Notes: generated from the letters alone by a model not told the origin. DNA of 46,245 bases from an uncultured bacterium (GCA_964637885.1 CAZWXO010000005.1:1-46245), one strand, 5' to 3'. Positions 1-15,880 are shown, counted from the first letter of the stretch. A program made the numbers and translations.

Positions 1-159
1 CGAATCCACGTGAACATGAAGCCCTGCCCCAAAGCGGCGTTGTGATTGATTGTATTGCGCAAGTGAATTGCCCCTATGGAACGGAGACTTGTTGATGTAT
101 TGGGAATGCCGTTGTTTTTTAGCAATTCCCTGCAGCCCCTCGGGGTTGGCAAGATGTGT

Positions 160-188
160 TTGCGGTGGTCTGTATCCTTTGCTATACT
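160..188 (+). promoter_or_regulatory. Putative sigmaA promoter for the polysaccharide locus
   Basis: TTGCGG (160-165), 17 bp spacer, TATACT (183-188) preceded by TGn (extended -10), about 37 bp upstream of the DUF4330 start. Confidence 0.55.
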
Positions 189-225
189 CTTATGCGGATA
201 GTTAACCAAGAAAGGGGTCGGACAG

Positions 226-711
226 ATGATTATTGATAACAAGGGGCGGCTTTTTGGGAAAGTCAGTATTATTGACATCATCGTGGTGGTGGCCGTCATT
301 GTTGTGGCTGTTGCTTATCTGTATAAGGATCAGGGAACTCAGGTAATCAGCGGGGGTGGAAAAACCGTGACGATGCAAATCGTCTGTAATTATGCCTTTC
401 CAGGAGCGGCAGATAGCCTGGAGGTGGGGGATCAGCTGGTAGCCAGCAGTGGTCTCACCAATGCTTTTATCGAGGAAATCACAGCGGAGCAGGCATGGGA
501 GACAGCACCAGATGCCGCAGGGCAAATGCAGCTTTCCCGCAATCCGTTTCGCGAGGATATTTATTTAACGATCGTCGCCGAGAACGCCCAAGTGACTCCG
601 GCTGAGATCGTCGTGGCGGGGCAAAAGGTACGCGCCGGCAAAGAAGATTTTTATATGAAGACGCAAACCGTTGAGCTAAAAGGCACGGTCTTATCTGTCA
701 AGGTGGATTAG
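226..711 (+). CDS. DUF4330-family protein (single N-terminal membrane anchor)
   Basis: The N-terminus MIIDNKGRLFGKVSIIDIIVVVAV matches the IDxKGRLFGKxxIID-TM start I recognise for DUF4330. RBS AAAGGGG upstream. Confidence 0.75.
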   Translation: MIIDNKGRLFGKVSIIDIIVVVAVIVVAVAYLYKDQGTQVISGGGKTVTMQIVCNYAFPGAADSLEVGDQLVASSGLTNAFIEEITAEQAWETAPDAAGQMQLSRNPFREDIYLTIVAENAQVTPAEIVVAGQKVRAGKEDFYMKTQTVELKGTVLSVKVD

Positions 712-713
712 CG

Positions 714-1031
714 ATGTTTAGATATTTAGCGGCCTTTCGGGCGCTGAGCAAGGCAACTTGGGAAGCAAGCCTGAGCCGCAACTTATTACGGGGCAGTTTT
801 TTTTGCCGCTGGCTCGTACCTGAGGAAGCAACGGATCATGATTCTTTCCCGGCTGGCTCGTGGATCGCTCGGGGCGGTGAGACTCTACTTAGACCGATAC
901 TTACAGCCTTGTGGTGGCTGGGTAAGCAATTCCGCACTCTAGCAGGAGCGAGTCAGGTCTTGCTTTTTTTGGAGCGGGCTTGGCAGGCTTCCTGGGCCGG
1001 CCGTGGACTAGCCTGGTGGCGCAACAATTAG
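714..1031 (+). CDS. Hypothetical Trp-rich amphipathic protein (105 aa)
   Basis: ATG 2 nt after the DUF4330 stop with an AGGTGG RBS. It fills the gap to the next gene and carries recurring WxxS/GS motifs. Confidence 0.5.
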   Translation: MFRYLAAFRALSKATWEASLSRNLLRGSFFCRWLVPEEATDHDSFPAGSWIARGGETLLRPILTALWWLGKQFRTLAGASQVLLFLERAWQASWAGRGLAWWRNN

Positions 1032-1061
1032 GCGCTGATAGACCTTGGGAACTGATATGAG

Positions 1062-2327
1062 GTGGTGTTCTCTGTGGAGATGAATTTGCTGAGGCAACGG
1101 CAGATCGTGCCGGAGCTGTACCCGGTTTTGGCCTATGTCGGAGTGGATTGGCTCATTCGCAATTCTGCGTTTTCGTATTTGGCCGGGAGTTGGGATGAGC
1201 TGGCTTTTTTAGCAATCGGTTTTATTTTGCTGGCCCGGATAGCTGTGTATCATCTGAGCCCTAGATTTGGTGCGGTCTTCCCCGTATTTTTGCTGTATTT
1301 AGCGATTATGGTTGGTTTGTTCTTGTTTAATTCCCCTGATGATCCGGCTGGAGTTGAGGGGCTTAGGGTCATGGTGCAGTATGTTTTATGGATGTTTATC
1401 GGCATGAATCTTCTCTTTTCCTGGCGAGAGCTGGAATGGATGGCGGATTTTTTTGTTGCAGTCTGCACTGTAGTGGCACTTTACGGTATGTATCAGTATT
1501 TTACTGGTTTAGAAATTCCTTTAACATGGATCGACTCGAAGGTTGAGACTACTCTTAAAACCAGGGTTTACTCGATTATCGGCAGCCCCAATATCTTAGG
1601 CAGTCTGATGGTCTTGTCCATTCCCGTTGCCCTGGCTCTCTTTAAGACTTGCGAGGCAAAAATTAAAAAGTATTACTATCTAGGTGCGATGTCGGTGATG
1701 CTTTTATGCCTGGTTTTTACCTTTTCCCGAGGAGCCTGGTTGGGATTTATGCTGGCAGCCTTGTTGTGTGGCCTTTGGCTGGATCGTCGCATTTTAGTGG
1801 CGATGATTTTATTGGTTGTCCTTAGCCCGATTTTAATGCCCTCGGTCTATGACCGGATGGCCTATATGATGTCTTCCGATTATCAGGCCAGCTCTGCCCG
1901 GGGAGGGCGGATTAGCCGCTGGACCTTGGCTCTAGCGGCCTGGGAGAAACAACCGGTAATTGGGGTGGGGCTAGGACGTTTTGGTGGGGCGGTAGCTGCG
2001 CGCTATTACCCTGAAGACAGCTTTTATGTGGATAGCTGGTACCTGAAGGTTGGCACAGAAAGCGGCTGGGTTGGTTTGGGGGCGACGGGATTATTCATTC
2101 TCTTTGTCCTGGGAGCAGCCCGTCGTGGCATTAATCAGGCCCGGGCCCCGAGCCTAAAGATGCTGGGGAGCGGATTATTGGCCGGGATGGTGGGCGTCCT
2201 GCTGCATAACCTGGTGGAGAATGTTTTCGAGGTTCCGATGATGGCGACTTATTTCTGGCTGTTTGCCGGATTTACTATTGCACTTCCCTGGCTGAATGGG
2301 CAGGAAGAGGAAGCAACCGATGAATGA
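1062..2327 (+). CDS. O-antigen ligase/polymerase (Wzy_C) family membrane protein
   Basis: Polytopic membrane protein with RVYSIIGSPNILG, LVFTFSRGAWLG, a large loop with GVGLGRF and LLHNLVEN. True start may be 1074 or 1080. Confidence 0.8.
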   Translation: MVFSVEMNLLRQRQIVPELYPVLAYVGVDWLIRNSAFSYLAGSWDELAFLAIGFILLARIAVYHLSPRFGAVFPVFLLYLAIMVGLFLFNSPDDPAGVEGLRVMVQYVLWMFIGMNLLFSWRELEWMADFFVAVCTVVALYGMYQYFTGLEIPLTWIDSKVETTLKTRVYSIIGSPNILGSLMVLSIPVALALFKTCEAKIKKYYYLGAMSVMLLCLVFTFSRGAWLGFMLAALLCGLWLDRRILVAMILLVVLSPILMPSVYDRMAYMMSSDYQASSARGGRISRWTLALAAWEKQPVIGVGLGRFGGAVAARYYPEDSFYVDSWYLKVGTESGWVGLGATGLFILFVLGAARRGINQARAPSLKMLGSGLLAGMVGVLLHNLVENVFEVPMMATYFWLFAGFTIALPWLNGQEEEATDE

Positions 2328-3438
2328 AAAAAAGGTGTTGCACCTAATCGGGGGCGGCGAATTTGGTGGGGCTGAGCGCCACGTTCTTTCACTAATGCAG
2401 GCGACAGATCGGCAAAACTTTACTCCGATGCTCGCCTGTCTCTGTGAAGGACCTTTTGCTGCCATGGCGGAGGCGTCCGGGTTTACCACTGCAACCTGGC
2501 CGATGGCGCATAAACTGGATTTAGCGCCTCGACGTCAGCTGCAGAGATTTGTCGAGGAGCAGGGAATTGAATTGCTGCACACCCACGGAGTCCGGGCCAA
2601 TTACTTAGCCCGTCCCTTGGCAGCCCGGATGAAGTTGCCGGTAGTGACAACTTTTCACAGCGATTTGGCTTTTGATTATCGGCATCGGCTGGAGTTTTAC
2701 TTTGCTTCGTTCCTGACACGGATTGGCAACCGCTATACTGATATTTTTATTGCCGTTTCGGCCTCAATTGCCAAAGGGATGGCGAAAATGGGGATCCCCT
2801 CCAGCAAAACGGTGACGATTCACAACGGTATCGATCCGGCCTCTTTCTCCCAAGCCTTGACAGGACCTGAATTACGGGCTCGCTTTGGTATTCCGGCAGA
2901 GGCCAGGGTAATCGGCACTGTCGCTCGCCTGCATCCGGTCAAAGGTCACCCATTTCTCCTTCAGGCAGCCGCCCGACTCGCCCCGGTTTTTCCCGATGTT
3001 TTCTTTCTGCTCATCGGCGATGGCCAGGATAGAAAAGCTCTGGAAAAAATGGCGGTGGATTTAGGGATTGCGCAGCATGTTGTCTTTGCTGGCTTTGTCA
3101 AAGATGTCGAAAGTCTCTATGCCGGGATGGATATATTTTGCCTGCCATCGCTGATGGAGGGGATGGGTTTATCCTTGGTGGAGTCGATGTATTGCGGGAC
3201 GCCGGTTGTTGCTTCACGCGTTGGAGGGATTCCGGAATTGGTGACGGATCAGACAGATGGGCTGTTGGTTCCCCCGGAAAACGTCGCAGCTTTAGTAGAT
3301 GCCTTGACGAAATTGTTGGATGACCCGGATTATGGCCGTCAGCTAGCTGCCCGGGGAAAAGTTACGGGTGGACGTTTTACGATTGAGGCCATGGCCCGCC
3401 AAGTTGAAGATGTGTATCGGAGGCTATTGGATTCATGA
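2320..3438 (+). CDS. GT4 family glycosyltransferase
   Basis: GGGEFGGAERHV N-terminal motif, RLHPVKGH, and the EGMGLSLVESM (Ex7E) motif. ATG at 2320 overlaps the upstream stop. Confidence 0.9.
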   Translation: MNEKKVLHLIGGGEFGGAERHVLSLMQATDRQNFTPMLACLCEGPFAAMAEASGFTTATWPMAHKLDLAPRRQLQRFVEEQGIELLHTHGVRANYLARPLAARMKLPVVTTFHSDLAFDYRHRLEFYFASFLTRIGNRYTDIFIAVSASIAKGMAKMGIPSSKTVTIHNGIDPASFSQALTGPELRARFGIPAEARVIGTVARLHPVKGHPFLLQAAARLAPVFPDVFFLLIGDGQDRKALEKMAVDLGIAQHVVFAGFVKDVESLYAGMDIFCLPSLMEGMGLSLVESMYCGTPVVASRVGGIPELVTDQTDGLLVPPENVAALVDALTKLLDDPDYGRQLAARGKVTGGRFTIEAMARQVEDVYRRLLDS

Positions 3439-3494
3439 TGCGGGAGAGCAAATTTATCGATAGGAACTGAAGTAAAGAGGGGACTAGACATAAT

Positions 3495-4664
3495 ATGAAG
3501 GAATTAACCGGTCAAGACATCATCTGCGTTTCGACTGTGGATTGGGAACCTTTGTGGACGCGCAAACAGCAGATTATGTCGCGGCTACCGGCGTCAAACC
3601 GGATCCTCTATGTGGAGCCGCCGCAAAGCTATATCGCGCATTTTAAAGACCCCGGACTGCGGGAAATTGCCTGCCGATGTGGGCTTCCGGCCCAGCGCCT
3701 TGGGGAAAATATGTGGATCTACAAACCCCGGCGGGTGCTTCCTTTTGCTAGCCGCTATCCGGGGATTAATCCACTCAACCAGCGCCGTTTGGCCGCGGAA
3801 ATCCAGACTCAGGCCGAGACAATCGGCATGAAAAACCCCGTTGTCTGGACCTACAATCACACCAGCTGTGATTTGTATCCGCACCTGCGGCATCAGCTAC
3901 TGGTCTATGATTGTGTGGATGAACATGGGGCTTACGCCGGCTTTAATCCGCTGCTTGTCCGGGGAATGGAAAAACGGCTCGTACAGGCCGCCGACATAAC
4001 TTTTTGCACGGCCCGGGGCCTCTATGAGACGCGGCAGGCGTGGGCCAAGGAAATCTGGCTGTCCCCTAATGCGGCCGATGTCGAACATTTTTCCCAGGCA
4101 GATGCTCCTGGTTGCGTCGTAGCGTCGGAGCTGCTTGAGCTCCCGCGCCCGATTTTGGGCTTCATCGGGGCTGTTAAAGAATGGATTGACTTGGATCTCT
4201 TCGCCGCCGCCGCCGCCGCTTTTCCTGCCGGATCGGTAGTGATTGTCGGGCCAGTGGGGGCAGGTCTGGACCTAGGCCAGTTAAAAAAGCACTCTAACAT
4301 TCACTTTCTCGGGCGCCAGAGCAAAGAAGAACTGCCTCACTTTCTTGCGGGGATGGATGTCTGCCTGAATCCCTTTCGGCAGGATGAACTGACAATCAGT
4401 GTCAGTCCGCTAAAATTTTATGAATATCTGGCCTCGGGGCGTCCGGTGGCATCAGTGCCGATGCCTGAATTGGCCGAATTTGCCGATCTCGTGGAGTTCG
4501 GTTCCGGGCCTCAGGGATTTGTCCAAGCGATTCATCGGGCCCTTAGCGATTCCCCCCGAAAAAAACAGGCCCGGATGGAGCGTTCCAGGGAAAATTCCTG
4601 GGAGAGCCGCACCAGCTTTATGATGGAAAAAATCGCTCCGCACTTGGCAGATGCCCATGTCTGA
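3495..4664 (+). CDS. Glycosyltransferase, TuaH-like GT-B family
   Basis: W-x3-W-TRKQQIM, VYDCVDEH, LGFIGAVKEWID and SPLKFYEYLASGRPV motifs. Confidence 0.8.
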   Translation: MKELTGQDIICVSTVDWEPLWTRKQQIMSRLPASNRILYVEPPQSYIAHFKDPGLREIACRCGLPAQRLGENMWIYKPRRVLPFASRYPGINPLNQRRLAAEIQTQAETIGMKNPVVWTYNHTSCDLYPHLRHQLLVYDCVDEHGAYAGFNPLLVRGMEKRLVQAADITFCTARGLYETRQAWAKEIWLSPNAADVEHFSQADAPGCVVASELLELPRPILGFIGAVKEWIDLDLFAAAAAAFPAGSVVIVGPVGAGLDLGQLKKHSNIHFLGRQSKEELPHFLAGMDVCLNPFRQDELTISVSPLKFYEYLASGRPVASVPMPELAEFADLVEFGSGPQGFVQAIHRALSDSPRKKQARMERSRENSWESRTSFMMEKIAPHLADAHV

Positions 4665-7305
4665 GCGGCAAATAGCCAGAGCAGCTGGCGTTTTACTTGT
4701 TATCAGCATCTTGGCCCGATTGGCAGGCTTTGTGCGGGAACAGGCATTGGCGGCTGTTTTTGGCACAAGCGCGGCAACGGATGCCTACCTGATGGCTTTC
4801 ACTCTTCCTAACCTTTTTTTTGTGGTCGTCGGCGGAGCTCTGGCGACGGCCTTTCTGCCTGTTATTACCCAACGTAAGGTCAGCGGGGATGCGGGGGACG
4901 ACAAGCGATTGGCGGCCTCGGTGCTGAATCTGACCTTGGTCGGGATGTTGATATTAGCCCTCATCGGGGTTATTTTTACACCCAGCTTTATTGCGCTTCT
5001 GGCCTATGGCTTTGCTCCGGATCAAATGGCCTTGACGGTTCGTTTGGCGCGGATTTTATTTCCCTGCGCGGTATTGTTGGCTATTTCCGGATTGCTCGGA
5101 GCCTTGCTCAATTCTTACAAAAAGTTTGCTGTCCCGGCCTTTACCTCGATCGCTTTTTCCTTGACTTTGATTGCCGGCATATTTTTGCTGACGCCGACGA
5201 TGGGCGTTGTCGGCTTGGCGTGGGCGACAGTTCTTGCGACGGTGGCGCAGGTGTCGGTACAACTCCCATCCCTGTACCGCAGCGGTTACCGGCACTCGCT
5301 GACGGCCTTTGATTGGCGGGATGAGGGTGTCCGCAAGGTTGGCAAGTTGATGCTTCCGGCGATGCTGGGCACATCCGTGGCGCAGATATATGTCACTGTG
5401 GACCGGATTCTGGCCTCGGGATTGCCGACAGGCAGTATCGCCGCTTTGAACTTTGCAAACAAATTGATGTTTCTGCCCTTTAATCTCTTTGTCATGACCG
5501 TCAGCACCGCCGTCTATCCCTATCTCTCTGAGCATGCGGCCCGCAAAGAATATAAAGAGCTAGGCGAAGCGACCGTATTTGGTCTGGTCCTGATTTCGAT
5601 TTTTACCATCCCGGCCTCAGTCGGGCTGTTTGTGCTGGCTGAGCCTCTTGTCGAGGTGTTGTTTCAGCGGGGTGCTTTTAACGATCACTCGACGGAGATG
5701 ACGGCCTTTGCTTTGCGTTTTTTGGCCTTGGGTCTGTTTGCCCAGGGGGCCTATAATATCGTCAACCGGACATTTTTCGCGATGCAGGACACCATGACAC
5801 CAGTTAAGGTGAGCGTGGTGGTCGTTGTCCTGAATATCTGTTTTAATCTGCTACTGATCGGTCCCCTACAGCATGGGGGTCTGGCATTGGCGAATTCGTT
5901 GGCCTCGATATGTAACCTCGTTTTCATTTATTATCTGCTGCGGCGGCGTTTGCCGCAAATGCCGGGCAAACGCCTAGCCCTTGATTTTGCCAAGCTGACG
6001 CTGGCTTCGGCTCTGATGGGTGGCGCAGTCTATTTTCTACAGTTTGAATATTTGCCGGGATTAATTGTGATGGACGACTTTGCTGGGCAGGCACAGGTTT
6101 TAGGCCTTTCAATTTTCGCAGGAGGGGCGGTCTATCTGTTTTTGATTCTTGCACTGAGGATTCATGAGGTAGAGCTACTGCGACACAAGGTGCACCGTCG
6201 GCTTTTTAAAAGCCCGCCAGGCCAGTCTCGCATTTTTATTTCTGGTTATTATGGATTTGGCAACACTGGCGATGAAGCGGTGTTGGCGGTTTTAGTCCGG
6301 CATCTCAGTCAATTGACCCAGGTTAAAAGAATTTCGGTTTTAGCTGCCAAGGCAGGCAGTACTCTGGAAGGGGTGCAAGTCGTCGGGCGACGCTCTCCCC
6401 TGCGCGTCTTAAAAGCGATTTTGCGTAGCGATGTCCTTATCAGCGGCGGGGGCGGGCTTTTGCAGAATGCGACCAGCAATCGTTCGCTGTGGTATTATCT
6501 TGCGATTATTTCTGTAGCCAAGCTGTCTGGGTGCCGCGTCTTGATTGTGGCCAACGGCATCGGCCCTTTGCGGGGCGACTTTAGTCGCTGGATGGTTGGG
6601 AGAGCGGTCGCCGGGTGCGACTATATCAGCGTTCGCGACGATGTTTCCCGGGAAGATCTGATTGCGATGAAGGTTGCGCCGGACCAGATCCGGCAGGTGG
6701 CTGATCCGGCCTTTTTGTTGCAGCGAGCGGATGTGGTGCCCTTGACACCTGACACTCCGATCGGCGAGAGTGGTGGAGCCTATATTGCAATCGCTTTACG
6801 CTTTTGGAAACGGCTTCCCTTGACAGGAAAATTGATTGCTTTGGTCAGCCATATTCAGCGCCAGACGGGGTATACCGTGTGTTTGGTTCCGATGCAGGAA
6901 CCGGCGGATCGCGAGCTGGCGGAAATTATTCGGGCAGCGGTTCCCGGGGTAGTTGTCACAGCGCCCCAGCTAGGCCCGCGACAAATTGCGGCTGTTTTTG
7001 CCAGTTCCGAGATGACAGTCGCGATGCGTTTACACGGTCTTATTTTTGCCGTTGCGGCCGGAGTGCCGGTCTTGGCGCTGGCCTACGATCCGAAGGTAGC
7101 TGCCCTAGCGGAGCAGACAGCTCAGCCCTGTGTAGCGGATTTAAAAGGGGCGACGGAAGAAGAATTGATGGCGGCTTTTGACCAGGCCTTCCAAAACAGA
7201 GCCGATTCAGCGCAGGCGTTGCATCTTCGCATGCCGGATTTGATGGCCGCTTCCCAGCAGGGGATGGAAGAAATGCAACGAGCTGTGGTGAGTGGAGGTC
7301 AGTAA
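4657..7305 (+). CDS. murJ: MurJ/MviN-family lipid-linked glycan flippase fused to a CsaB-type polysaccharide pyruvyltransferase
   Basis: The N-terminal ~525 aa show MviN signatures (ARLAGFVRE, TDAYLMAFTLPNLF, FANKLMFLP, VLFQRGAF, FFAMQDTMTP). From 6229 the same frame continues RIFISGYYGFGNTGDEA...SGGGGLLQ...SVRD...MRLH...YDPKV, which is CsaB-like. No stop between domains. Alternative start at 4651. Confidence 0.88.
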   Translation: MSERQIARAAGVLLVISILARLAGFVREQALAAVFGTSAATDAYLMAFTLPNLFFVVVGGALATAFLPVITQRKVSGDAGDDKRLAASVLNLTLVGMLILALIGVIFTPSFIALLAYGFAPDQMALTVRLARILFPCAVLLAISGLLGALLNSYKKFAVPAFTSIAFSLTLIAGIFLLTPTMGVVGLAWATVLATVAQVSVQLPSLYRSGYRHSLTAFDWRDEGVRKVGKLMLPAMLGTSVAQIYVTVDRILASGLPTGSIAALNFANKLMFLPFNLFVMTVSTAVYPYLSEHAARKEYKELGEATVFGLVLISIFTIPASVGLFVLAEPLVEVLFQRGAFNDHSTEMTAFALRFLALGLFAQGAYNIVNRTFFAMQDTMTPVKVSVVVVVLNICFNLLLIGPLQHGGLALANSLASICNLVFIYYLLRRRLPQMPGKRLALDFAKLTLASALMGGAVYFLQFEYLPGLIVMDDFAGQAQVLGLSIFAGGAVYLFLILALRIHEVELLRHKVHRRLFKSPPGQSRIFISGYYGFGNTGDEAVLAVLVRHLSQLTQVKRISVLAAKAGSTLEGVQVVGRRSPLRVLKAILRSDVLISGGGGLLQNATSNRSLWYYLAIISVAKLSGCRVLIVANGIGPLRGDFSRWMVGRAVAGCDYISVRDDVSREDLIAMKVAPDQIRQVADPAFLLQRADVVPLTPDTPIGESGGAYIAIALRFWKRLPLTGKLIALVSHIQRQTGYTVCLVPMQEPADRELAEIIRAAVPGVVVTAPQLGPRQIAAVFASSEMTVAMRLHGLIFAVAAGVPVLALAYDPKVAALAEQTAQPCVADLKGATEEELMAAFDQAFQNRADSAQALHLRMPDLMAASQQGMEEMQRAVVSGGQ

Positions 7306-7307
7306 AA

Positions 7308-8087
7308 ATGGCGATACTAACATCTTTGCCAACTTGTCGTGTCTTGGACTTTGATTTTGCTAAGCTGACCTTGGCGGAATCTCTCGCCTGGTTAAAAAAT
7401 TCTTTGGAAAATGAGGGATTGCCCCAGCACATCGTGACCGCTAATCCGGAAATAGTGATGCTGGCCCGTAAAAATCCCTTGTTAAAAACGATTATCCTCC
7501 AATCGTCAATGATTACGGCTGACGGCACCGGAATTGTCTGGGCGGCCAAATTCCTGGGCCGGCCTTTGCCGGCACGGGTGACTGGTGTGGAATTGACGGA
7601 TGGATTGTTGTCTCTGGCCGCCACAGCGGGCTTATCGGTTGGCCTTGTGGGCGGCAAGCCCGGGATTGCCGAAGCAGCAGCCATTAAGATGCGGCAACGC
7701 TACCCAGGGCTTCAGATTCCGGTGGTATGCCACGGCTATTTGCAGGATGTCGATCCGGCTCTGCCGGCTCGGTTGATGCGGGAAAATCGTGTGTCCATCG
7801 CCTTGGTCGCGATGGGAGCCCCCCGCCAGGAAGAGTGGATTAGTGCCCACAAGGAGCTGGCCGGGGCTCGGGTTTTAATAGGAATCGGTGGAGTCCTAGA
7901 CATCTGGGCCGGTTGCCAGCGAAGGGCTCCGGCTTTTTGCTGTCGTTGGGGCATGGAATGGGCCTGGCGCCTCCTTTGCCAGCCGACGCGTCTGGTGCGG
8001 GCTCTGGCGATTCCAGCTTTTATTTGGGCAGTGGTGAAGGATCGTTACAGCGGAAAAACTGGCAACAATTCCCGTGAAAATGCATGA
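7308..8087 (+). CDS. tagA: WecB/TagA/CpsF (GT26) glycosyltransferase
   Basis: HIVTANPEIV, ADGTGIVWA, RVTGVEL, VAMGAPRQEEW, GIGGVLD and EWAWRL motifs. Confidence 0.9.
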   Translation: MAILTSLPTCRVLDFDFAKLTLAESLAWLKNSLENEGLPQHIVTANPEIVMLARKNPLLKTIILQSSMITADGTGIVWAAKFLGRPLPARVTGVELTDGLLSLAATAGLSVGLVGGKPGIAEAAAIKMRQRYPGLQIPVVCHGYLQDVDPALPARLMRENRVSIALVAMGAPRQEEWISAHKELAGARVLIGIGGVLDIWAGCQRRAPAFCCRWGMEWAWRLLCQPTRLVRALAIPAFIWAVVKDRYSGKTGNNSRENA

Positions 8088-8228
8088 TTTAGCCAATAAT
8101 CCGAGCGAGCATCTTGAGCAGCACGAAGGCTAATTTATGAGATAGGTGGGGTTGGTCGTGGCAATAAGCTGGCAAGCATCGGGCAGATGCGGTAAAATAG
8201 GGACATCAATCGAGTCGGAGGAAATATT

Positions 8229-9065
8229 ATGGATTTAACTACTCGCCAGGAACTTGAAGATCAGGCCCGGCAGATTCGCTGCCACATCATCAAAATGCTA
8301 GAAGCGTCCGGCTCCGGTCATCCGGGAGGCTCGCTTTCGGAAACTGACATTCTTACATATTTGTATTTTTACAAGATGAAAATCGATCCCCAGCAACCTA
8401 AGCTGGATGATCGGGATCGTTTTGTTCTTTCCAAGGGGCACGGTGCCCCGGGGTTGTACGCGACCCTTGCGACGCGGGGTTTCTTTTCCGTCGATGACCT
8501 GACGTCCCTGCGCAAGCTGCATTCGCCTTTGCAGGGGCATCCGGACATGCGTAAACTTGTCGGAATCGAGATGTCGACCGGCTCCCTTGGTCAAGGTTTC
8601 TCGGCAGCCTGCGGAATGGCTATGGCTGGCAAAATGGATCAATCGCCTTGGCGGGTTTACGTCTTGCTGGGGGATGGCGAAATGCAGGAGGGGCAGGTGT
8701 GGGAAGCTGCGATGGCGGCCGCCCATTACCGCTTACATAATCTAACGGCAATTCTCGATTATAATGGGTTGCAAATAGATGGAACTAATGAGTGCGTGAT
8801 GTGTCTAGGAGACGTGGGTGCGAAATGGAAGGCCTTTGGCTGGAATGTACTGCCATGCGATGGCCACTCGATGGAAGAACTTGACAAGGCATTTAGCCAG
8901 GCTGTCGCATATGGTGCAGGCCCATCGATTATCATTGCTAAAACCGTCAAGGGAAAAGGGGTTTCCTTTATGGAAAACGCCGTCGACTGGCATGGAAAAG
9001 CTCCGGACAAAGCACAGGCGGCTCAAGCCTTAGCTGATTTAGGTTGTCAGGAGGTGGTGGCATGA
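8229..9065 (+). CDS. Transketolase, N-terminal (TPP-binding) subunit
   Basis: SGHPGGSLS, DRFVLSKGH, LQGHP, STGSLGQG and the GDGEMQEG...N TPP-binding motif. Confidence 0.95.
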   Translation: MDLTTRQELEDQARQIRCHIIKMLEASGSGHPGGSLSETDILTYLYFYKMKIDPQQPKLDDRDRFVLSKGHGAPGLYATLATRGFFSVDDLTSLRKLHSPLQGHPDMRKLVGIEMSTGSLGQGFSAACGMAMAGKMDQSPWRVYVLLGDGEMQEGQVWEAAMAAAHYRLHNLTAILDYNGLQIDGTNECVMCLGDVGAKWKAFGWNVLPCDGHSMEELDKAFSQAVAYGAGPSIIIAKTVKGKGVSFMENAVDWHGKAPDKAQAAQALADLGCQEVVA

Positions 9066-10015
9066 GTCAGATTAAGGTTGCTACGAGAGATGCCTACGGG
9101 AAGGCGCTGGCTCGCCTAGGTGAGGAAAACCCGCAAGTTGTCGTACTGGATGCGGATTTATCGAAATCGACTAAAACGGTGGACTTTGCCAAGGCGTTTC
9201 CTGAGAGGTTTTTCAACATGGGCATCGCTGAAGCGAATATGATGGGAACGGCAGCTGGCCTTGCCGCAGCCGGCAAAATTCCCTTTGCCAGTACCTTTGC
9301 AATTTTTGCCACCGGGCGCGCCTTTGAGCAGGTCCGCAACTCGATTGCTTATCCTTCCTTGAACGTCAAGATTGCTGCTTCCCACGCCGGGGTCACCGTT
9401 GGCGAGGATGGGGGCTCGCACCAAGCTATCGAAGACATCGCTTTGATGCGCGTCTTGCCGCACATGACCGTCATTGTCCCCTCGGACGGACCTTCGACAG
9501 AGGCAGCTGTGTTTGCGGCGGCTGAGCATCAAGGGCCGGTTTATCTGCGTCTGGGTCGACCTGGGGTTCCAATTCTATATCCGGAGGGGATCGACTTTAA
9601 GATTGGCCAGGCCGTAGTATTGCGTCCGGGGCACGACCTGACGATTATTGCTTGCGGAATAATGGTCTCAATTGCTTTGGAAGCCGCTGAAATATTGGCC
9701 GGCAAAGGGATTGATGCCCGGGTGCTGGACTGTCATACGATCAAGCCTCTGGACGTCGTCGCGGTGCTGGCTGCCGCCAAGGAAACCGGGCTGATCGTGA
9801 CGGCTGAAGAACATAGCGTCCTAGGGGGGCTTGGCGGTGCAGTCGCAGAAACAGTTGCTTCGTGCTATCCGGTACCGGTTCTTCGCGTTGGACTCGAGGA
9901 TTGCTTTGGTCAATCCGGGAAGCCAGACGAGCTGTTAAAAGAATACAACCTGACAGCGGAGCGGATTGTCGCTAAGGCTCAGTCGGGTTTAAAGATGCGA
10001 AGCAAAAATATTTAG
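9062..10015 (+). CDS. Transketolase, C-terminal subunit
   Basis: ATRDAYG, DADLSKST, MGIAEANM, GEDGGSHQ and EEHS motifs. ATGA overlap with the N-subunit gene. Confidence 0.95.
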   Translation: MSQIKVATRDAYGKALARLGEENPQVVVLDADLSKSTKTVDFAKAFPERFFNMGIAEANMMGTAAGLAAAGKIPFASTFAIFATGRAFEQVRNSIAYPSLNVKIAASHAGVTVGEDGGSHQAIEDIALMRVLPHMTVIVPSDGPSTEAAVFAAAEHQGPVYLRLGRPGVPILYPEGIDFKIGQAVVLRPGHDLTIIACGIMVSIALEAAEILAGKGIDARVLDCHTIKPLDVVAVLAAAKETGLIVTAEEHSVLGGLGGAVAETVASCYPVPVLRVGLEDCFGQSGKPDELLKEYNLTAERIVAKAQSGLKMRSKNI

Positions 10016-10072
10016 TTCCAGCACTGATGGCCGCAAGGCAAAGTCAGGATAGTTAATGAGAGGGTGGTGCGG

Positions 10073-10753
10073 ATGATTCAAGCTTTTAATCTTTCTTCAA
10101 GTTATGGCGGCGTAAATAATTCTTTGACTGATATCAATTTACATATTCATCGCGGGGAGTTTGCCTTTCTTGTTGGACCGAGCGGGGCGGGTAAGTCCAC
10201 CTTGATGAAAATCATTACTCGGGAAGTGGTCCCGACGCGGGGGCAGATGTTTATCAACGGCAAAAGCATTATTCGCCTGCGTAATTCCAAGGTTCCCCAT
10301 CTGCGACGTTCGATAGGGATCGTTTTTCAGGATTTCCGTCTTTTAGAGAACCGCACTGCCATCGACAATGTCAGTTTTGCCTTGCGGGTTGTGGAAACTC
10401 CCAAGCGGGAGATTCACTCCCGGGCGATGGCGGCACTGGAAATGGTTGGCTTGATGGGTAAGGCCCAGTCGTTGCCAAACGAAATGTCCGGAGGAGAGCA
10501 ACAACGGGTGGCGATTGCCCGGGCCATTGTCAACAATCCTCTATTAATCATTGCCGATGAGCCGACGGGGAATTTGGACCCGGATACATCTTGGGAAATA
10601 ATCAAACTGTTAGCGGAGATAAATCGCCGCGGGACAACTATTTTTATCGCCACTCATGACAAAGAAATGGTGAATAAAACCAAAAAAAGAGTTATTGCCC
10701 TGGAAAACGGCCGGATTGTCCGGGACGAGCAAAGGGGTGAGTACGAGGCATGA
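10073..10753 (+). CDS. ftsE: Cell-division ABC ATPase FtsE
   Basis: Walker A GPSGAGKST, VFQDFRLL, SGGEQQRV, ADEPTGNLD. Directly followed by ftsX. Confidence 0.95.
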   Translation: MIQAFNLSSSYGGVNNSLTDINLHIHRGEFAFLVGPSGAGKSTLMKIITREVVPTRGQMFINGKSIIRLRNSKVPHLRRSIGIVFQDFRLLENRTAIDNVSFALRVVETPKREIHSRAMAALEMVGLMGKAQSLPNEMSGGEQQRVAIARAIVNNPLLIIADEPTGNLDPDTSWEIIKLLAEINRRGTTIFIATHDKEMVNKTKKRVIALENGRIVRDEQRGEYEA

Positions 10754-11634
10754 GTGTACAATCATGGATTTACTATTTCAAAGAAGCCTTCGGCAGCATC
10801 CGGCGGAATATCTGGATGTCATTTGCTTCGACGGGTGTGGTCACCGTCACCCTGCTGATATTTGGTACCTTCTTGCTGACAGCCACTAATCTGGCAGTGA
10901 TGACTAAAAATTTAGAAACGACAGTCGAGATATCCGTCTTCCTGGACAAGGAGATTAAGGATGACGACCGGGTCCTTTTAGGGCGTGAGCTCGCCGCTAC
11001 CAAACACGTCGAGTCGGCCCGATTTGTCTCCAAGGAAGAGGGACTGAAACAGCTTCAACGTGAAATGGGTTGGGAAGACGAGGATCTTGAGGTTCTCGGG
11101 GCCAACCCGCTACCTGACGCCTACTATGTGCGGGTTGACAGCCCCGCTAATGTGGATTTGCTGGCGCGGACAATCACCCGGATGGAGGGAGTCGAAACCG
11201 TCCGCTATGGCAAAGACATCGTTGAAAAACTATTTCGCCTGACCCAGGCTCTCCGCTACACCGGGATAGTGCTTATTGTTCTGTTGGCTTTCGCAGCGGT
11301 TTTTATAATCGCAAATACGATTAAATTGACAGTGGTAGCCCGGCGCAAAGAGATTTCTATCATGAAAAGTGTGGGAGCGACGAATTGGTTTATTCGCTGG
11401 CCTTTTGCCCTCGAGGGATTGATTCTCGGGCTGGTCGGTAGCCTGATCGCGACTGGGGTGCTTTTTTGGGGATATCAATGGGTCCAGGTCAAGGTCAGCG
11501 AGCTCTTGCCTTTTATAGTGCTGGTTAAGGATGCCAATTTGTTGGGCATGAATTATTGGACAGTCATCAGCTTAGGTTGTTTGTTGGGTCTGGTGGGCAG
11601 CGCTGTGTCAATCAGGCGATATTTGAAAGTTTAG
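10750..11634 (+). CDS. ftsX: Cell-division permease FtsX
   Basis: Four-TM layout with an extracellular loop (NPLP), NTIKLTVVARRKEISIMKSVGATNWFIRWPFALEG. Confidence 0.95.
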   Translation: MSVQSWIYYFKEAFGSIRRNIWMSFASTGVVTVTLLIFGTFLLTATNLAVMTKNLETTVEISVFLDKEIKDDDRVLLGRELAATKHVESARFVSKEEGLKQLQREMGWEDEDLEVLGANPLPDAYYVRVDSPANVDLLARTITRMEGVETVRYGKDIVEKLFRLTQALRYTGIVLIVLLAFAAVFIIANTIKLTVVARRKEISIMKSVGATNWFIRWPFALEGLILGLVGSLIATGVLFWGYQWVQVKVSELLPFIVLVKDANLLGMNYWTVISLGCLLGLVGSAVSIRRYLKV

Positions 11635-11660
11635 TTAGTCTTTTTTATGGGGGTGTAAAG

Positions 11661-12827
11661 GTGGAAAGTATTAAATGTAAAAAATTAGCGCGCGTGGTGA
11701 CAGCTCTTGTCATCGGTGTGACGTTGGTTGCGGGATCGCTTCTAGTGCCGGGCATTGCCGCGGCGGACAATTTAGATGAAAAACAACAAGAGCTAAAAAA
11801 TGTTCAGAAACAGATTGATCAAAAACAAAAGGAACTGAACAAGGTCAAGAGTCAGCAAAGATCCGTTATTAACCAGTTGAACTCAGCGGAAACAAAGATG
11901 CGTACGGCGGAAAAGGATATCAAGACCATCGACTCCAAACTAGGAACGACCAAGCACACGATAGCGTCGACAAAAAAGGCGCTGGAGGAGACGACTAAAG
12001 AGCTGGAGCACACCCAGAAAGTGATGTCGACCCGTATCGAGAATATTTATATGACAGGGAAAGTCAGCTATCTGGAAGTGTTGGTCAATTCTGTCACCTT
12101 TGCTGATTTTCTCGATCGGATGGATATGATTCGGGAGATCTCCCGTCAGGATGTCGAAGTTTTTAAGGAAGTCCGGGCCAAAAAAATTGCCATTCAAAAG
12201 CAAAAGGCTGTACTGGAGGCCGAAGAAGAAAATCTGTCCAACTTGCTCCACGATCAACTGGAAAAGAAATTGGAATATGCCCAAACCGCCGAAGAGCGGG
12301 AAAAAGTCCTGAAACAGATTAACAGTGAGAAAAAGAAGCTCGAAGCGGCTCTGGATGAGATGGAACGCATCGCTCAACAGATGAATTCGACCATCGTGGC
12401 CTTGATGAAGGAAAATGGCATCAGCTCCGAGCAGTCCTATTCCGGCGGGGCGATGCTCAAGCCCGTCAATGGCAGGCTTTCCTCGCCGTACGGCTACCGG
12501 ATTCATCCGATTTTGAAGACCAAGAAATTCCATTCCGGAATTGATCTGGCGGCATCGTCAGGGACGCCGATTAAGGCTGCTAATGATGGCAAAGTCATCA
12601 AATCCGGCTGGAGCAGCGGCTATGGCAACACTGTTATTATTGATCATGGCGGCGGCATCACAACCTTGTATGCCCACGCCTCGGTGCTCAATTGCAAGGT
12701 GGGAGAATGGGTAAGCCGCGGGCAAACTATCGCCAAGGTCGGAAGCACGGGAATGTCGACCGGGCCTCACTTGCATTTTGAAGTTCGGATTAACGGCAAG
12801 ACCCAAAATCCGCAAAACTATATTTAA
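11661..12827 (+). CDS. EnvC/CwlO-like coiled-coil protein with C-terminal M23 peptidase domain
   Basis: Signal peptide, long coiled coil, then HSGIDLAA (HxxxD) and GPHLHFEV (HxH). Follows ftsEX. GTG start at 11661 chosen from the upstream GGGG RBS. Confidence 0.88.
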   Translation: MESIKCKKLARVVTALVIGVTLVAGSLLVPGIAAADNLDEKQQELKNVQKQIDQKQKELNKVKSQQRSVINQLNSAETKMRTAEKDIKTIDSKLGTTKHTIASTKKALEETTKELEHTQKVMSTRIENIYMTGKVSYLEVLVNSVTFADFLDRMDMIREISRQDVEVFKEVRAKKIAIQKQKAVLEAEEENLSNLLHDQLEKKLEYAQTAEEREKVLKQINSEKKKLEAALDEMERIAQQMNSTIVALMKENGISSEQSYSGGAMLKPVNGRLSSPYGYRIHPILKTKKFHSGIDLAASSGTPIKAANDGKVIKSGWSSGYGNTVIIDHGGGITTLYAHASVLNCKVGEWVSRGQTIAKVGSTGMSTGPHLHFEVRINGKTQNPQNYI

Positions 12828-12848
12828 AGAAAAGAGCAAGCGAGATAC

Positions 12849-14006
12849 ATGTTGATTAAAATATTCGGAAACCGTCACTTGCGACAGACGATGGTAACAG
12901 TCTTGGTGACTTTTGCAGTTACTTCCGCAGGATTTCTGGCTGCATATACTGTCTTTGTTCGCCCGCAACTCCGGGAGGGTGCTGTTGTGCTGGATGTCTT
13001 ACATCGGGTGCAGCGCAGCGCCTTAAACGAGCCAGAGATGGTCCGGCTCAAGCAGGGAGCCATCGACGGCATTATTGCCAGCACCGGTGACCCATATTCA
13101 TATTACCTTCCTCCACGGCGTTATTTGGAGATGGCTCATGAAAACGAGGGCTACTTCGAAGGTGTCGGCATCGAAGTGATGATGGAAAAGGATGGTTTGC
13201 GGGTGATTGCCCCGATTCGGGATACTCCTGCTGACTTAGGGGGGATGCAGCCCAAAGACTTGATCGTTGCTGTGGACGGCACCAGCACGGCTGGAATGAC
13301 TGTCAATCAGGCGATTAGCCGTATTCGCGGACCCGAGGGGACAGAGGTTGACCTTGAAGTCCTCCGCGAGGGGGAGAGCAAGTCCCTGCATTTTCGGTTG
13401 ACCCGCAGCAAAATCCCTATCGAGACAGTTGACGGAGAGATGCTGGAGGATAAAATCGGGTATATTGTCGTCGATAACTTTTCCGAAACCACTGCGGCGG
13501 AGTTTGACGTGATTTACAAGCGCTTACAGGACGAGGGAGCCAGGGGATGGGTTCTGGATCTACGGAATAATCCGGGGGGCTCGGTTCAAAGTTGTGCGGA
13601 GATTGCCCAGCGAATTGTCCCTAAGGGGAGAATAGTTACGGTTCGCTATCGGGATGGATCAGAAAATGTCTATGAGTCTGAGCTTGCTAAACTTGCGATG
13701 CCCTATGTGGTCTTAGTTAACGGAGGTAGCGCCAGCGCCTCGGAAATTTTAACTGGTGCCGTGCAGGACAATCAGGTTGCCCCCATTATCGGAACGACCA
13801 CCTTTGGTAAGGGTGTGGTGCAAACCGTCTCATCCTTGGGTAATGGTGGTGGTCTGATCTTGACTGTGGCCGAATATATGACTCCTAAAGGCAGGAAAAT
13901 ACACGAAAAGGGCATCACACCGGACTTTATTGTCGAGCAGCCAGATGAAGGTGAGGCTGATGTGCAGCTAGAATTTGCTGTTGATAAATTGTTGGAGAGC
14001 TTGTAA
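12849..14006 (+). CDS. S41 C-terminal processing peptidase (CtpA/CtpB family) with PDZ domain
   Basis: GDPYSYY, FEGVGI (PDZ), DLRNNPGG, NGGSASASEI (catalytic Ser) and FGKG (catalytic Lys). Confidence 0.93.
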   Translation: MLIKIFGNRHLRQTMVTVLVTFAVTSAGFLAAYTVFVRPQLREGAVVLDVLHRVQRSALNEPEMVRLKQGAIDGIIASTGDPYSYYLPPRRYLEMAHENEGYFEGVGIEVMMEKDGLRVIAPIRDTPADLGGMQPKDLIVAVDGTSTAGMTVNQAISRIRGPEGTEVDLEVLREGESKSLHFRLTRSKIPIETVDGEMLEDKIGYIVVDNFSETTAAEFDVIYKRLQDEGARGWVLDLRNNPGGSVQSCAEIAQRIVPKGRIVTVRYRDGSENVYESELAKLAMPYVVLVNGGSASASEILTGAVQDNQVAPIIGTTTFGKGVVQTVSSLGNGGGLILTVAEYMTPKGRKIHEKGITPDFIVEQPDEGEADVQLEFAVDKLLESL

Positions 14007-15876: not shown

Positions 15877-15880
15877 AAAA

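Follow-up and report, generated by a model that had tools for sequence, protein, structure and literature searches.

We detected that murJ and csaB form a genuine gene fusion, encoding one conserved protein, inside a secondary-cell-wall-polymer (SCWP) operon of an uncultured Clostridia-type Firmicute. The window, the whole stretch of DNA that was analysed (46,245 nucleotides), holds the fused gene as one uninterrupted open reading frame (Table 1). Its second in-frame ATG, at 4657, gives a protein of 882 aa and was also picked as the start by the JGI and NCBI gene callers. The preliminary description of a single polypeptide with apparently intact MurJ and CsaB domains was confirmed, since both domains lie in one ORF and score above the curated equivalog cut-offs (TIGR01695, 235 bits; TIGR03609, 213 bits). 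The E-values of 1e-106 and 1e-38 inside one open frame exclude chance. The linker and the motifs GYYG, GDEA, SGGG.LLQ, SVRD, MRLH and YDPK were found where they had been placed before.

Table 1. The fused murJ-csaB gene, its parts and its neighbours in the window.
Feature	Position	Strand	Evidence and remarks
DUF4330 protein	226..711	+	Pfam DUF4330, 107 bits; conserved on the upstream side of the locus
Wzy_C (O-antigen ligase/polymerase-like) membrane protein, candidate polymer polymerase	1062..2327	+	PF04932, 67 bits
GT4 glycosyltransferase	2296..3438	+	Pfam Glycos_transf_1 and Glyco_transf_4; syntenic in L001 and L009
GT-B glycosyltransferase, weakly TuaH-like	3495..4664	+	Pfam Glyco_trans_1_4; NCBIfam TuaH 83 bits, below cut-off
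Fused murJ-csaB ORF	4651..7305	+	884 aa, stop codon within coordinates; ORF listing
MurJ/MviN flippase domain, 14 TM helices, last TM helix aa 477-501	4681..6153	+	NCBIfam TIGR01695 murJ_mviN, aa 11-511, 368 bits, 506-position model; Pfam MurJ PF03023, aa 33-465, 354 bits
Cytoplasmic juxtamembrane helix HEVELLRHKVHRRLF (aa 505-519), formerly the MurJ C-terminal tail	6163..6207	+	AF2 model
T5A4 run at the fusion point	6203..6211	+	Direct sequence reading, three-frame translation
Linker KSPPGQ (aa 520-525), formerly the intergenic spacer	6208..6225	+	Non-regular residues in the AF2 model
CsaB ketal-pyruvyltransferase domain (aa 526-884)	6226..7302	+	NCBIfam TIGR03609 S_layer_CsaB, aa 527-830, 271 bits; Pfam PS_pyruv_trans PF04230, aa 538-814, 133 bits
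TagA/TarA-type (WecG family) ManNAc transferase	7308..8087	+	PF03808, 175 bits; TIGR00696, 144 bits

The MurJ half matched solved MurJ structures at 1e-63 to 1e-69 (phmmer), and its AF2 model aligned to 7waw with a TM-score of 0.90 and an rmsd of 2.6 Å over ~500 columns (Foldseek). The 14-TM fold with the extra TM13-14 pair is present in the model. Since its 14 helices match the solved structures, the MurJ C-terminus is predicted to be cytoplasmic, in line with the earlier view that the topology is compatible with a cytoplasmic CsaB. Among the charged cavity residues that E. coli needs (R18, R24, D39, R52, R270), the first three have retained equivalents (R23, R29, D44), while K271 stands at the R270 position and F57 at the R52 position. 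R52 is absent from all 24 of the Firmicutes/Chloroflexi sequences compared, suggesting that F57 is a clade trait. By sequence, the MurJ half resembles the usual MurJ orthologue found in related Clostridia, and its orthologues in isolate genomes carry the MurJ annotation.

The motifs GYYGF, LLQNAT, SVRD, RFWKR, MRLH and YDPK are all present in the CsaB half. The shown or predicted PEP-binding/acceptor sites of Paenibacillus alvei CsaB were mapped by motif, not through the P. alvei sequence itself; the columns so assigned to Y14, T94, R148, R207, R306, H308 and K328 are invariant in eight fused and unfused CsaBs. The F16 column is the exception in this alignment, and the predicted S88 position seems to be G in the CsaB clade of the window. 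The family-defining residues appear to be retained in both halves. Comparison with L009, a diverged relative (Nei-Gojobori), gave dN/dS of 0.029/1.56 (~0.02) for MurJ aa 37-194, 0.131/1.27 for tail, linker and CsaB together (CsaB half ~0.10) and ~0.11 across 32 junction-spanning codons. The MurJ half, the CsaB half and the junction are all under purifying selection.

The nearest relative, L001 (MurJ 59% and CsaB 42% identical to the window halves), has synteny identical to that of the window, GT4-GT-...-murJ-csaB-tagA-tktN-tktC, with murJ (4493-6067) and csaB (6064-7146) as separate genes. Their 4-nt overlap marks them as translationally coupled. The window fusion arose by the joining of such neighbouring genes: in its lineage the stop of murJ and the start of csaB disappeared, and the ~18-nt spacer turned into the linker KSPPGQ. 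The fusion point is the position where MurJ of relatives ends, the helix at aa 505-519 corresponds in the alignment to the tails ...SRLSR* and ...ERLARR* of stand-alone relatives, and CAG at 6223 occupies the site of the csaB ATG in relatives (MSRVMLCGYYG in L004, QSRIFISGYYG in the window). In the AF2 model of the fused protein (pLDDT 91.5, pTM 0.75; helix 505-519, strand 526-532), the cytoplasmic C-terminal helix of the 14-TM MurJ is predicted to run directly into the first CsaB beta-strand. The two genes are not generally linked: among the 80 nearest csaB loci, taken from species-representative genomes, MurJ was absent within 8 kb in 66 and fused in none.

The neighbouring genes are related to wall-polymer synthesis. 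The TuaH-like gene runs into the beginning of the fused ORF, and tagA, encoding the maker of the CsaB acceptor, begins 2 nt past its stop; the csaB-tagA order is kept in L001, L013 and 28/80 genome loci. Wzy_C, the two glycosyltransferases at 2296-4664, MurJ-CsaB and TagA together represent a Wzx/Wzy-type SCWP gene set (polymerase, tailoring enzyme, flippase, TagA). The Wzy_C gene has the equivalent position in L006 and L009, and the DUF4330 gene is found at wall-polymer loci of relatives, beside Wzy_C (L006), near Wzy_C (L009) or near LCP/TagO-like genes (L109). The placement of the fused gene in a wall-polymer pathway is thereby supported by tagA downstream and the Wzy_C and glycosyltransferase genes upstream. 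Neither a TagO-type initiating transferase nor an LCP ligase is encoded in the 46-kb window; both occur at the related loci L006, L105 and L109, so that in this organism they are probably encoded elsewhere in the genome. No SLH-domain protein was detected among the window ORFs. The orthologous murJ of Ca. Syntrophocurvum, D. reducens and Ammonifex lies among TagO-like, LCP, DUF4330, Wzy_C and SLH-protein genes, and in D. reducens it is flanked by SLH proteins.

The premise that CsaB proteins are stand-alone enzymes did not hold, as many fusions were found in public data, the reverse-order CsaB-MurJ in thousands of sequences. Both domains were present in 61 of the best 120 clusters, one of which comprises 3,328 sequences, with the reverse order being common. 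Further types are MurJ-CsaB, MurJ-GT4-CsaB, CsaB-TagA, GT4-CsaB and CsaB-GT4; our literature search found no paper describing any of these CsaB/MurJ/TagA/GT4 fusions. The preliminary description would have given way to an architecture both common and characterised; the pairing proved to be widespread, but no characterisation of it was found. There were at least four separate origins of the MurJ and CsaB pairing, covering both orders (the window clade; P0455; P0131; the P0151/P0402 and P0459 clades). Loci of other such fusions hold SCWP-type genes, including TagA/WecG (L013), TagO-like, LCP and Wzy_C (L105), and DUF5693 (L010, L105 and L106). The reverse-order fusions of Clostridia (for instance, MDY6019934.1 of Oscillospiraceae; P0151, P0402, P0459) resemble the window protein in combining CsaB and MurJ in one polypeptide, in the cytoplasmic CsaB, in their wall-polymer loci and in having no experimental characterisation. 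They differ in the N-terminal CsaB (MurJ is N-terminal in the window), in the linker of roughly 50-100 residues (six in the window), which is Pro- and Glu-rich in P0151, P0402 and P0480, and in the always adjacent DUF5693 gene, which the window lacks. The window halves are 25-35% identical to these fusions and closest to the unfused L001 pair, so that their origin is independent. The window gene shows a rare order of two domains whose pairing is frequent in sequence databases and yet uncharacterised.

Taken together, we consider it probable that the murJ-csaB fusion is selectively maintained in the SCWP operon for the benefit of co-localisation and hand-over. On the cytoplasmic side of the membrane, TagA would make ManNAc-GlcNAc-PP-undecaprenol, and the tethered CsaB domain would put a 4,6-ketal pyruvate from PEP on the lipid-linked ManNAc, as P. 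alvei CsaB does in vitro. The GT4 and TuaH-like transferases may lengthen the unit, the MurJ-family domain would flip the completed lipid-linked unit, and the Wzy_C protein would polymerise the units outside. An LCP ligase, encoded elsewhere, would join the polymer to peptidoglycan, where SLH-domain proteins would bind it. Fusion would set a 1:1 ratio and place CsaB, as the final tailoring enzyme in the cytoplasm, within a few residues of TM14. This helix contributes, in solved MurJ structures, to the groove proposed for the undecaprenyl tail, and it is this proximity of the tethered CsaB that points to co-localisation and hand-over as the benefit. The strict gate proposed earlier, through which only pyruvylated units pass, is not required by the evidence.

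A different reading, which we regard as unlikely, takes the MurJ half for an ordinary lipid II flippase with CsaB simply tethered at the sites of wall synthesis, or for a flippase of both substrates. Such an arrangement would involve neither a dedicated polymer flippase nor channelling. The orthodox character of the MurJ half is consistent with it: the TIGR01695 equivalog cut-off is well exceeded (368 vs 235), the match to lipid II MurJ structures is close, the R18, R24 and D39 equivalents are kept, evolution is very slow (dN/dS ~0.02), and the orthologues in isolate genomes are the proteins annotated as MurJ. Moreover, no other MOP-family flippase is encoded in the 46-kb window, and CsaB fuses to soluble partners as well (TagA, GT4), so that fusion may owe as much to operon neighbourhood as to mechanism. 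A second flippase is nevertheless plausible, since lipid II flippases in many Firmicutes are of the YtgP/SpoVB type or Amj. The independent recurrence of the MurJ and CsaB fusion in both orders argues against this reading, as does the consistent location of this murJ orthologue group in TagO/LCP/Wzy_C/SLH surroundings and not in a peptidoglycan (mur/dcw-type) cluster. In the same direction, surface PSII falls on knock-down of Clostridioides difficile MviN (PMC5065235).

More broadly, and with less conviction than for the hand-over explanation of the window gene, we suggest that the csaB-adjacent MurJ of a wide range of Clostridia might be a dedicated flippase for pyruvylated undecaprenyl-linked SCWP units and not for lipid II, forming a 'modify-then-flip' machine with CsaB. 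If this is true, the coupling was selected strongly enough for at least four separate fusions, with CsaB joined to one or the other end of the transporter. Having only a six-residue tether to TM14, the window protein would then be the tightest natural version, and for that reason a good structural subject for how a MOP flippase takes substrate from the last cytoplasmic enzyme.

The fusion point itself coincides with the T5A4 run, which L009 and the JGI assembly share. The junction is the same in the JGI and NCBI assemblies, although 15 SNPs and a single 2-nt indel separate them within 8.65 kb; the indel is a CC at 4063-4064, missing from the JGI assembly, where the TuaH-like gene is split. L009, from an unrelated dataset (SRR10133189), keeps the junction frame and the run at 76-80% nucleotide identity. 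Its contig is rearranged or possibly chimeric and most of murJ is missing, so that conservation of the junction frame is proven and that of the full-length fusion is not. Two products would result from a -1 slip on CUU-UUU-AAA, which reads UAA and yields MurJ alone (519 aa), with normal decoding yielding the fusion. A slip of this kind would set the ratio of MurJ to MurJ-CsaB. We find it very improbable: U5A4 is kept in the window and L009 though each codon has synonymous alternatives, and UAA follows the run directly in the -1 frame, but the basis is these two sequences, the run departs from the canonical X XXY YYZ heptamer, and the amino acids L-F-K are conserved in any case. It is scarcely credible that the real sequence has an indel in the run and the genes are separate, even with a fusion point exactly at a 9-nt homopolymer pair where one more T gives CTT TTT TAA, a stop, and a MurJ of the usual length (520 aa), with nearest full-length relatives all unfused and with assemblies differing by an indel nearby (4063-4064), because the two assemblies agree at the junction while disagreeing at 16 other sites, L009 shows the identical run and frame at ~76% identity, the junction-spanning codons are constrained (~0.11), CAG stands where relatives have the csaB ATG, and with T6 the csaB frame would lack any start codon close to its N-terminus (direct reading found no in-frame ATG, GTG or TTG between 6193 and 6229).

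The finding bears on which transporter exports the SLH-anchoring wall polymer, and on the cargo of MurJ paralogues other than lipid II. The fusion is 'Rosetta-stone' evidence that MurJ and CsaB act together, and its repeated occurrence in both orders and in thousands of public sequences is stronger evidence than the window case alone. Thousands of these public sequences are labelled just 'MurJ' or 'CsaB', as pipelines name bifunctional proteins by one domain. MurJ-CsaB opens to test a non-peptidoglycan substrate for a MurJ-family flippase and the coupling of tailoring to flipping.

The pairing of a flippase with a pyruvyltransferase follows the logic of the Bacillus anthracis csaA-csaB operon, in which a flippase-superfamily transporter gene adjoins csaB and the operon serves pyruvylation of the SLH-protein-anchoring SCWP (Mesnage et al. 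2000, cited in PMC3297441 and PMC3545897). There csaA and csaB are separate genes, whereas the window encodes one polypeptide with a six-residue linker. CsaA is of the Wzx/Polysacc_synt type, not of the MurJ (PF03023/TIGR01695) type. P. alvei CsaB, which acts in vitro on the lipid-linked ManNAc-GlcNAc-PP-Und made by TagA (PMC6030368), is a soluble 402-aa enzyme that stands alone, in contrast to the fused CsaB of the window. Its locus, orf1-csaB-tagA-tagO (PMC6030368, PMC10435577), shares the csaB-tagA order with the window and includes tagO, which the window lacks; the PEP-binding/acceptor residues are kept in the window CsaB half. C. difficile MviN (CD2781) of the PSII/AP locus, a proposed wall-glycopolymer flippase (PMC5065235, PMC4973711), is likewise a MurJ/MviN-family protein in a Wzx/Wzy-type wall-glycopolymer locus; its role is unproven because of polar effects. 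It is fused to no enzyme, unlike the window MurJ, and PSII binds CWB2 proteins and is not a pyruvylated SLH ligand. The lipid II MurJ proteins of E. coli, Arsenophonus and Thermosipho (6cc4, 7waw, 5t77) share the 14-TM MOP fold with the window protein (TM-score up to 0.90), which differs from them in F57 for R52, K for R270 and the added C-terminal enzyme domain.

The MurJ-CsaB fusion is real. The ORF listing of the window gave an 884-aa frame (4651..7305, +) that is open throughout; public gene callers choose the second in-frame ATG at 4657, giving 882 aa. Both domains were detected in this ORF by Pfam (MurJ, aa 33-465, 354 bits; PS_pyruv_trans, aa 538-814, 133 bits) and, above the family cut-offs, by NCBIfam (TIGR01695 murJ_mviN, aa 11-511, 368 bits vs cut-off 235; TIGR03609 S_layer_CsaB, aa 527-830, 271 bits vs cut-off 213), confirming the single ORF with MurJ and CsaB of the preliminary description, whose linker and CsaB motifs were all located where it had placed them.

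Coordinates of the MurJ-CsaB gene and its neighbours (window positions), of the modelled junction segments (aa of the fused protein) and of reverse-order loci
Feature	Coordinates	Strand	Remark
DUF4330	226-711		
Wzy_C, polymerase/ligase-like	1062-2327		
GT4	2296-3438		
GT, TuaH-like (weakly)	3495-4664		
MurJ-CsaB	4651-7305	+	
TagA/WecG-family ManNAc transferase	7308-8087		begins 2 nt past the MurJ-CsaB stop
Split transketolase, N-terminal TPP-binding half	8229-9065		pair directly 3' of tagA
Split transketolase, pyrimidine-binding and C-terminal half	9044-10015		
FtsE ATPase, FtsX, M23 peptidase with PcsB-like coiled coil, PDZ/S41 CtpA-like protease	10064-14006		
TM14	aa 477-501		AlphaFold2 model
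Juxtamembrane helix	aa 505-519		AlphaFold2 model
Six non-regular residues	aa 520-525		AlphaFold2 model
First CsaB strand	aa 526-532		AlphaFold2 model
Reverse-order fusion/DUF5693 neighbourhood	L010:2760-4805		
Reverse-order fusion/DUF5693 neighbourhood	L105:12613-14634		
Reverse-order fusion/DUF5693 neighbourhood	L106:7825-10008		

The PEP/acceptor residues shown or predicted for P. alvei CsaB (Y14, F16, T94, R148, R207, R306, H308, K328; PMC10435577) map to GYYGF, LLQNAT, SVRD, RFWKR, MRLH and YDPK of the window protein, and in an alignment of eight fused and unfused CsaBs these columns, except F16, are invariant. The MurJ half matched solved MurJ structures at 1e-63 to 1e-69 (phmmer). It retains counterparts of E. 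coli R18, R24 and D39, with K at the R270 position and F at the R52 position. The R52-to-F replacement was rejected as a sign of altered substrate: none of the 24 Firmicutes/Chloroflexi sequences compared, fused or unfused, has R52, and its loss is therefore uninformative about the substrate. An AlphaFold2 model of the fused protein (33-row alignment) reached a mean pLDDT of 91.5 and a pTM of 0.75. Foldseek aligned its MurJ part with 7waw (TM-score 0.90, rmsd 2.6 A) and matched the non-MurJ part to GT-B-like folds. Such a fold is expected of a pyruvyltransferase. Both MurJ termini are cytoplasmic, and the topology is compatible with an attached CsaB, as had been proposed.

The wall-polymer context suggested earlier for the fusion holds, with Wzy_C, GTs and TagA around MurJ-CsaB. 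The split transketolase pair also lies 3' of tagA in L001, the contig of the closest MurJ homologue, so its place beside the wall-polymer operon is conserved. Genes for cell division and wall hydrolysis, from FtsE to the CtpA-like protease, cluster just 3' of the polymer operon. The remaining window genes are housekeeping (two-component systems, uvrBAC, trpS, tatD, ksgA, GGDEF proteins), and no SLH protein, TagO, LCP ligase or second flippase is encoded within the 46-kb window. Promoter-like sites in the window were no more frequent than expected by chance, and terminator-like sites exceeded the shuffle mean only by a modest margin; none was informative. In the TuaH-like GT gene, the CC dinucleotide at 4063-4064 is missing from the JGI assembly of the same region (L008), where the frameshift breaks the gene into two calls (190 and 212 aa). 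The difference reflects either strain variation (a pseudogene) or a mistake in the assembly of one record. Protein searches found named relatives of the MurJ half in Syntrophomonadaceae, Desulfotomaculia-type Clostridia and similar groups, from which the source organism is inferred to be a Firmicute of the class Clostridia.

We propose that TagA would make an acceptor to be pyruvylated by the tethered CsaB, that the GTs possibly extend the unit, and that the MurJ-family domain would flip it for polymerisation by Wzy_C outside the membrane. Joint function is suggested by the presence of MurJ and CsaB in one polypeptide (Rosetta-stone argument), and the suggestion is strengthened by the independent recurrence of such fusions in both domain orders. 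Loci of other fusions hold genes typical of secondary cell wall polymers: TagA/WecG at L013, TagO-like, LCP and Wzy_C at L105, and DUF5693 at L010, L105 and L106. MviN of the C. difficile PSII locus is a proposed polymer flippase (PMC5065235, PMC4973711). Orthologous murJ genes of Ca. Syntrophocurvum, D. reducens and Ammonifex stand among TagO-like, LCP, DUF4330 and SLH-protein genes. In D. reducens MI-1 (L108), an S8 peptidase-SLH and a Big_4/TIG-SLH protein (5774-8824 and 14210-17017) flank the stand-alone orthologous murJ, tying this orthologue group to SLH biology even without an adjacent csaB; TagO-like, NTP-transferase and phosphoglucomutase genes are its neighbours there. The MurJ half also resembles the ordinary MurJ orthologue found in these Clostridia. 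It might then be an ordinary lipid II flippase to which CsaB is only anchored, or might serve both lipid II and the polymer; given the standard-looking MurJ half, this explanation keeps a minor, still appreciable likelihood beside polymer export by the fused protein. Of the earlier ideas, a strict quality-control gate found no support, and substrate channelling and the assignment of this MurJ to wall polymer are hypotheses.

Loci of the reverse order (CsaB N-terminal, MurJ C-terminal) have a further feature. A gene for DUF5693 (PF18949, 670-730 aa) immediately adjoins every reverse-order fusion examined, often overlapping it; the protein appears to be a third conserved component of the reverse-order module. 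None was found in the window.

At the fusion point, a T5A4 run (6203-6211) follows the ...HRRLF position. Comparison of the NCBI record with the JGI contig (P0121 and P0001, respectively; JGI metagenome 3300020048) detected 15 SNPs and one 2-nt indel over 8.65 kb, the junction being identical. The exhaustive search, covering 1.84 billion representatives, found P0122, a 79% identical protein that begins within the MurJ tail and reads across the junction (...HHRLFKSPAGQRRVFISGYYG). Its contig L009 (Logan SRR10133189_540) comes from an unrelated run, has 76-80% DNA identity to the window, and keeps the T5A4 run and the frame amid many surrounding substitutions. Between the window and the L009 lineage, dN and dS (Nei-Gojobori) were 0.131 and 1.27 for the MurJ tail, linker and CsaB (344 codons), 0.12 and 1.13 for the 32 junction-spanning codons, and 0.029 and 1.56 for MurJ aa 37-194. 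By these ratios, purifying selection has maintained the fused frame while the two lineages diverged far apart. A -1 slip on the U5A4 run, conserved in L009 and directly followed by UAA in that frame, would free a normal-length MurJ without CsaB; we assign it a low probability. A homopolymer error, with a true T6 run that would read CTT TTT TAA and restore a normal 520-aa MurJ separate from csaB, is very improbable, because the two assemblies agree, the diverged relative stays in frame and dN/dS is low.

L009 itself is rearranged (L009:1-1900): it lacks murJ aa 195-497, and its csaB piece has the opposite orientation to the GT genes. L009 6412-1302 corresponds to window 151-5232 in reverse, L009 281-1310 to window 6143-7175 in the forward direction, and the two blocks have about 9 nt in common where they meet; the csaB piece opens with new ATGs (MMAMILSLRV...). 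Either a true inversion/deletion or a chimeric assembly of the contig could account for this. L009 demonstrates a conserved junction, not a second intact fusion.

The fused state is derived, since the window halves are closer to an unfused pair (L001; 59% for MurJ, 42% for CsaB) than to other fusions. Among homologues of the MurJ half, P0002 on L001 is the closest, and the gene order there (GT4, GT, UDP-sugar dehydrogenase, murJ, csaB, tagA, tktN, tktC) is syntenic with the window, murJ (4493-6067) and csaB (6064-7146) being separate genes with a 4-nt overlap (ATGA). The two genes are 68 nt apart in L004, and the wall-polymer cluster of Ca. Syntrophocurvum alkaliphilum (L006) has csaB 2.9 kb 3' of murJ. 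L004 (GCA_050259135.1) encodes a MurJ, P0003, 57% identical to the window's and next to a Firmicutes-type csaB; the contig, labelled 'Methylocystaceae bacterium' by NCBI, is probably mis-binned in that MAG. MurJ tails of relatives stop (...SRLSR*, ...ERLARR*) at the column aligned to the window ...HRRLF, and the window CAG (QSRIFISGYYG) aligns with the csaB ATG of L004 (MSRVMLCGYYG). An independent CsaB start was rejected: the csaB frame holds no ATG, GTG or TTG from 6193 up to the conserved RIFISGYYG (6193-6229), and the GTG at 6190 has no spaced Shine-Dalgarno. From the tail alignment, the T5A4 run and the start-less csaB frame, the fusion arose through loss of the murJ stop and the csaB start, a short spacer turning into the linker.

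The premise of uniqueness, with CsaB always a stand-alone enzyme, did not survive the exhaustive search and a search seeded with P0151; many MurJ+CsaB proteins are present in databases. Pfam coordinates gave CsaB-then-MurJ order in eight fusions, including P0151 (880 aa), and MurJ-GT4-CsaB in P0131 (1287 aa). In the P0151-seeded search, PF04230 and PF03023 occurred together in 61 of the 120 best clusters (90% identity clusters), at identities spanning 28-98%; the cluster P0459 alone comprises 3,328 sequences, on contigs as long as 715 kb. The window order was found in P0455 (900 aa, three contigs), whose halves are only 36% and 33% identical to the window's and whose unrelated linker still holds the old csaB Met (...GGRAMTEILIAGYYG). 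On this evidence, MurJ and CsaB were fused on at least four separate occasions. MurJ is fused elsewhere to GT4, GT2 or GDSL/SGNH domains (P0186, P0252, P0219).

A four-sequence CsaB alignment was used to scan GTDB species representatives, and among the 80 csaB loci nearest the window CsaB none was fused to MurJ. MurJ directly adjoined csaB at 4/80 and lay within 8 kb at 14/80, leaving 66/80 without it; TagA adjoined csaB at 28/80. CsaB-TagA was fused at three loci and GT4-CsaB at eight; at each of these eight, MurJ is encoded about 3.7-4.9 kb upstream. Many database clusters also have CsaB-TagA, and CsaB-GT4 exists too. CsaB with other partners was seen at L018, L020, L027, L028, L029, L049, L053 and L062 (about 6800-9100), at L046, L084 and L094, and in P0351 and P0454. 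A junction-spanning metagenome query gave, among the matches listed, distant CsaB only, with neither further window-type fusions nor the source contig, and has little bearing on rarity. Judged from the database cluster counts and the 80-locus scan, the domain pair is common in databases but lineage-restricted, the window order being rare.

The architecture was thus already common in databases, while no description of a MurJ-CsaB fusion of any kind was found in the literature. Annotation follows one half: MDY6019934.1 is named only 'polysaccharide pyruvyl transferase CsaB [Oscillospiraceae bacterium]' by NCBI, and other members are labelled 'putative peptidoglycan lipid II flippase' by JGI. A recurrent fusion overlooked by annotation and literature is a more useful result than a single case. 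The same domains make up the window protein and the abundant reverse-order CsaB-MurJ proteins, but the two types are not related by descent. The window system would work similarly to the csaA-csaB and csaB-tagA-tagO modules of Bacillus/Paenibacillus but, unlike them, its transporter is of the MurJ type, not the Wzx type, and it is a single polypeptide.
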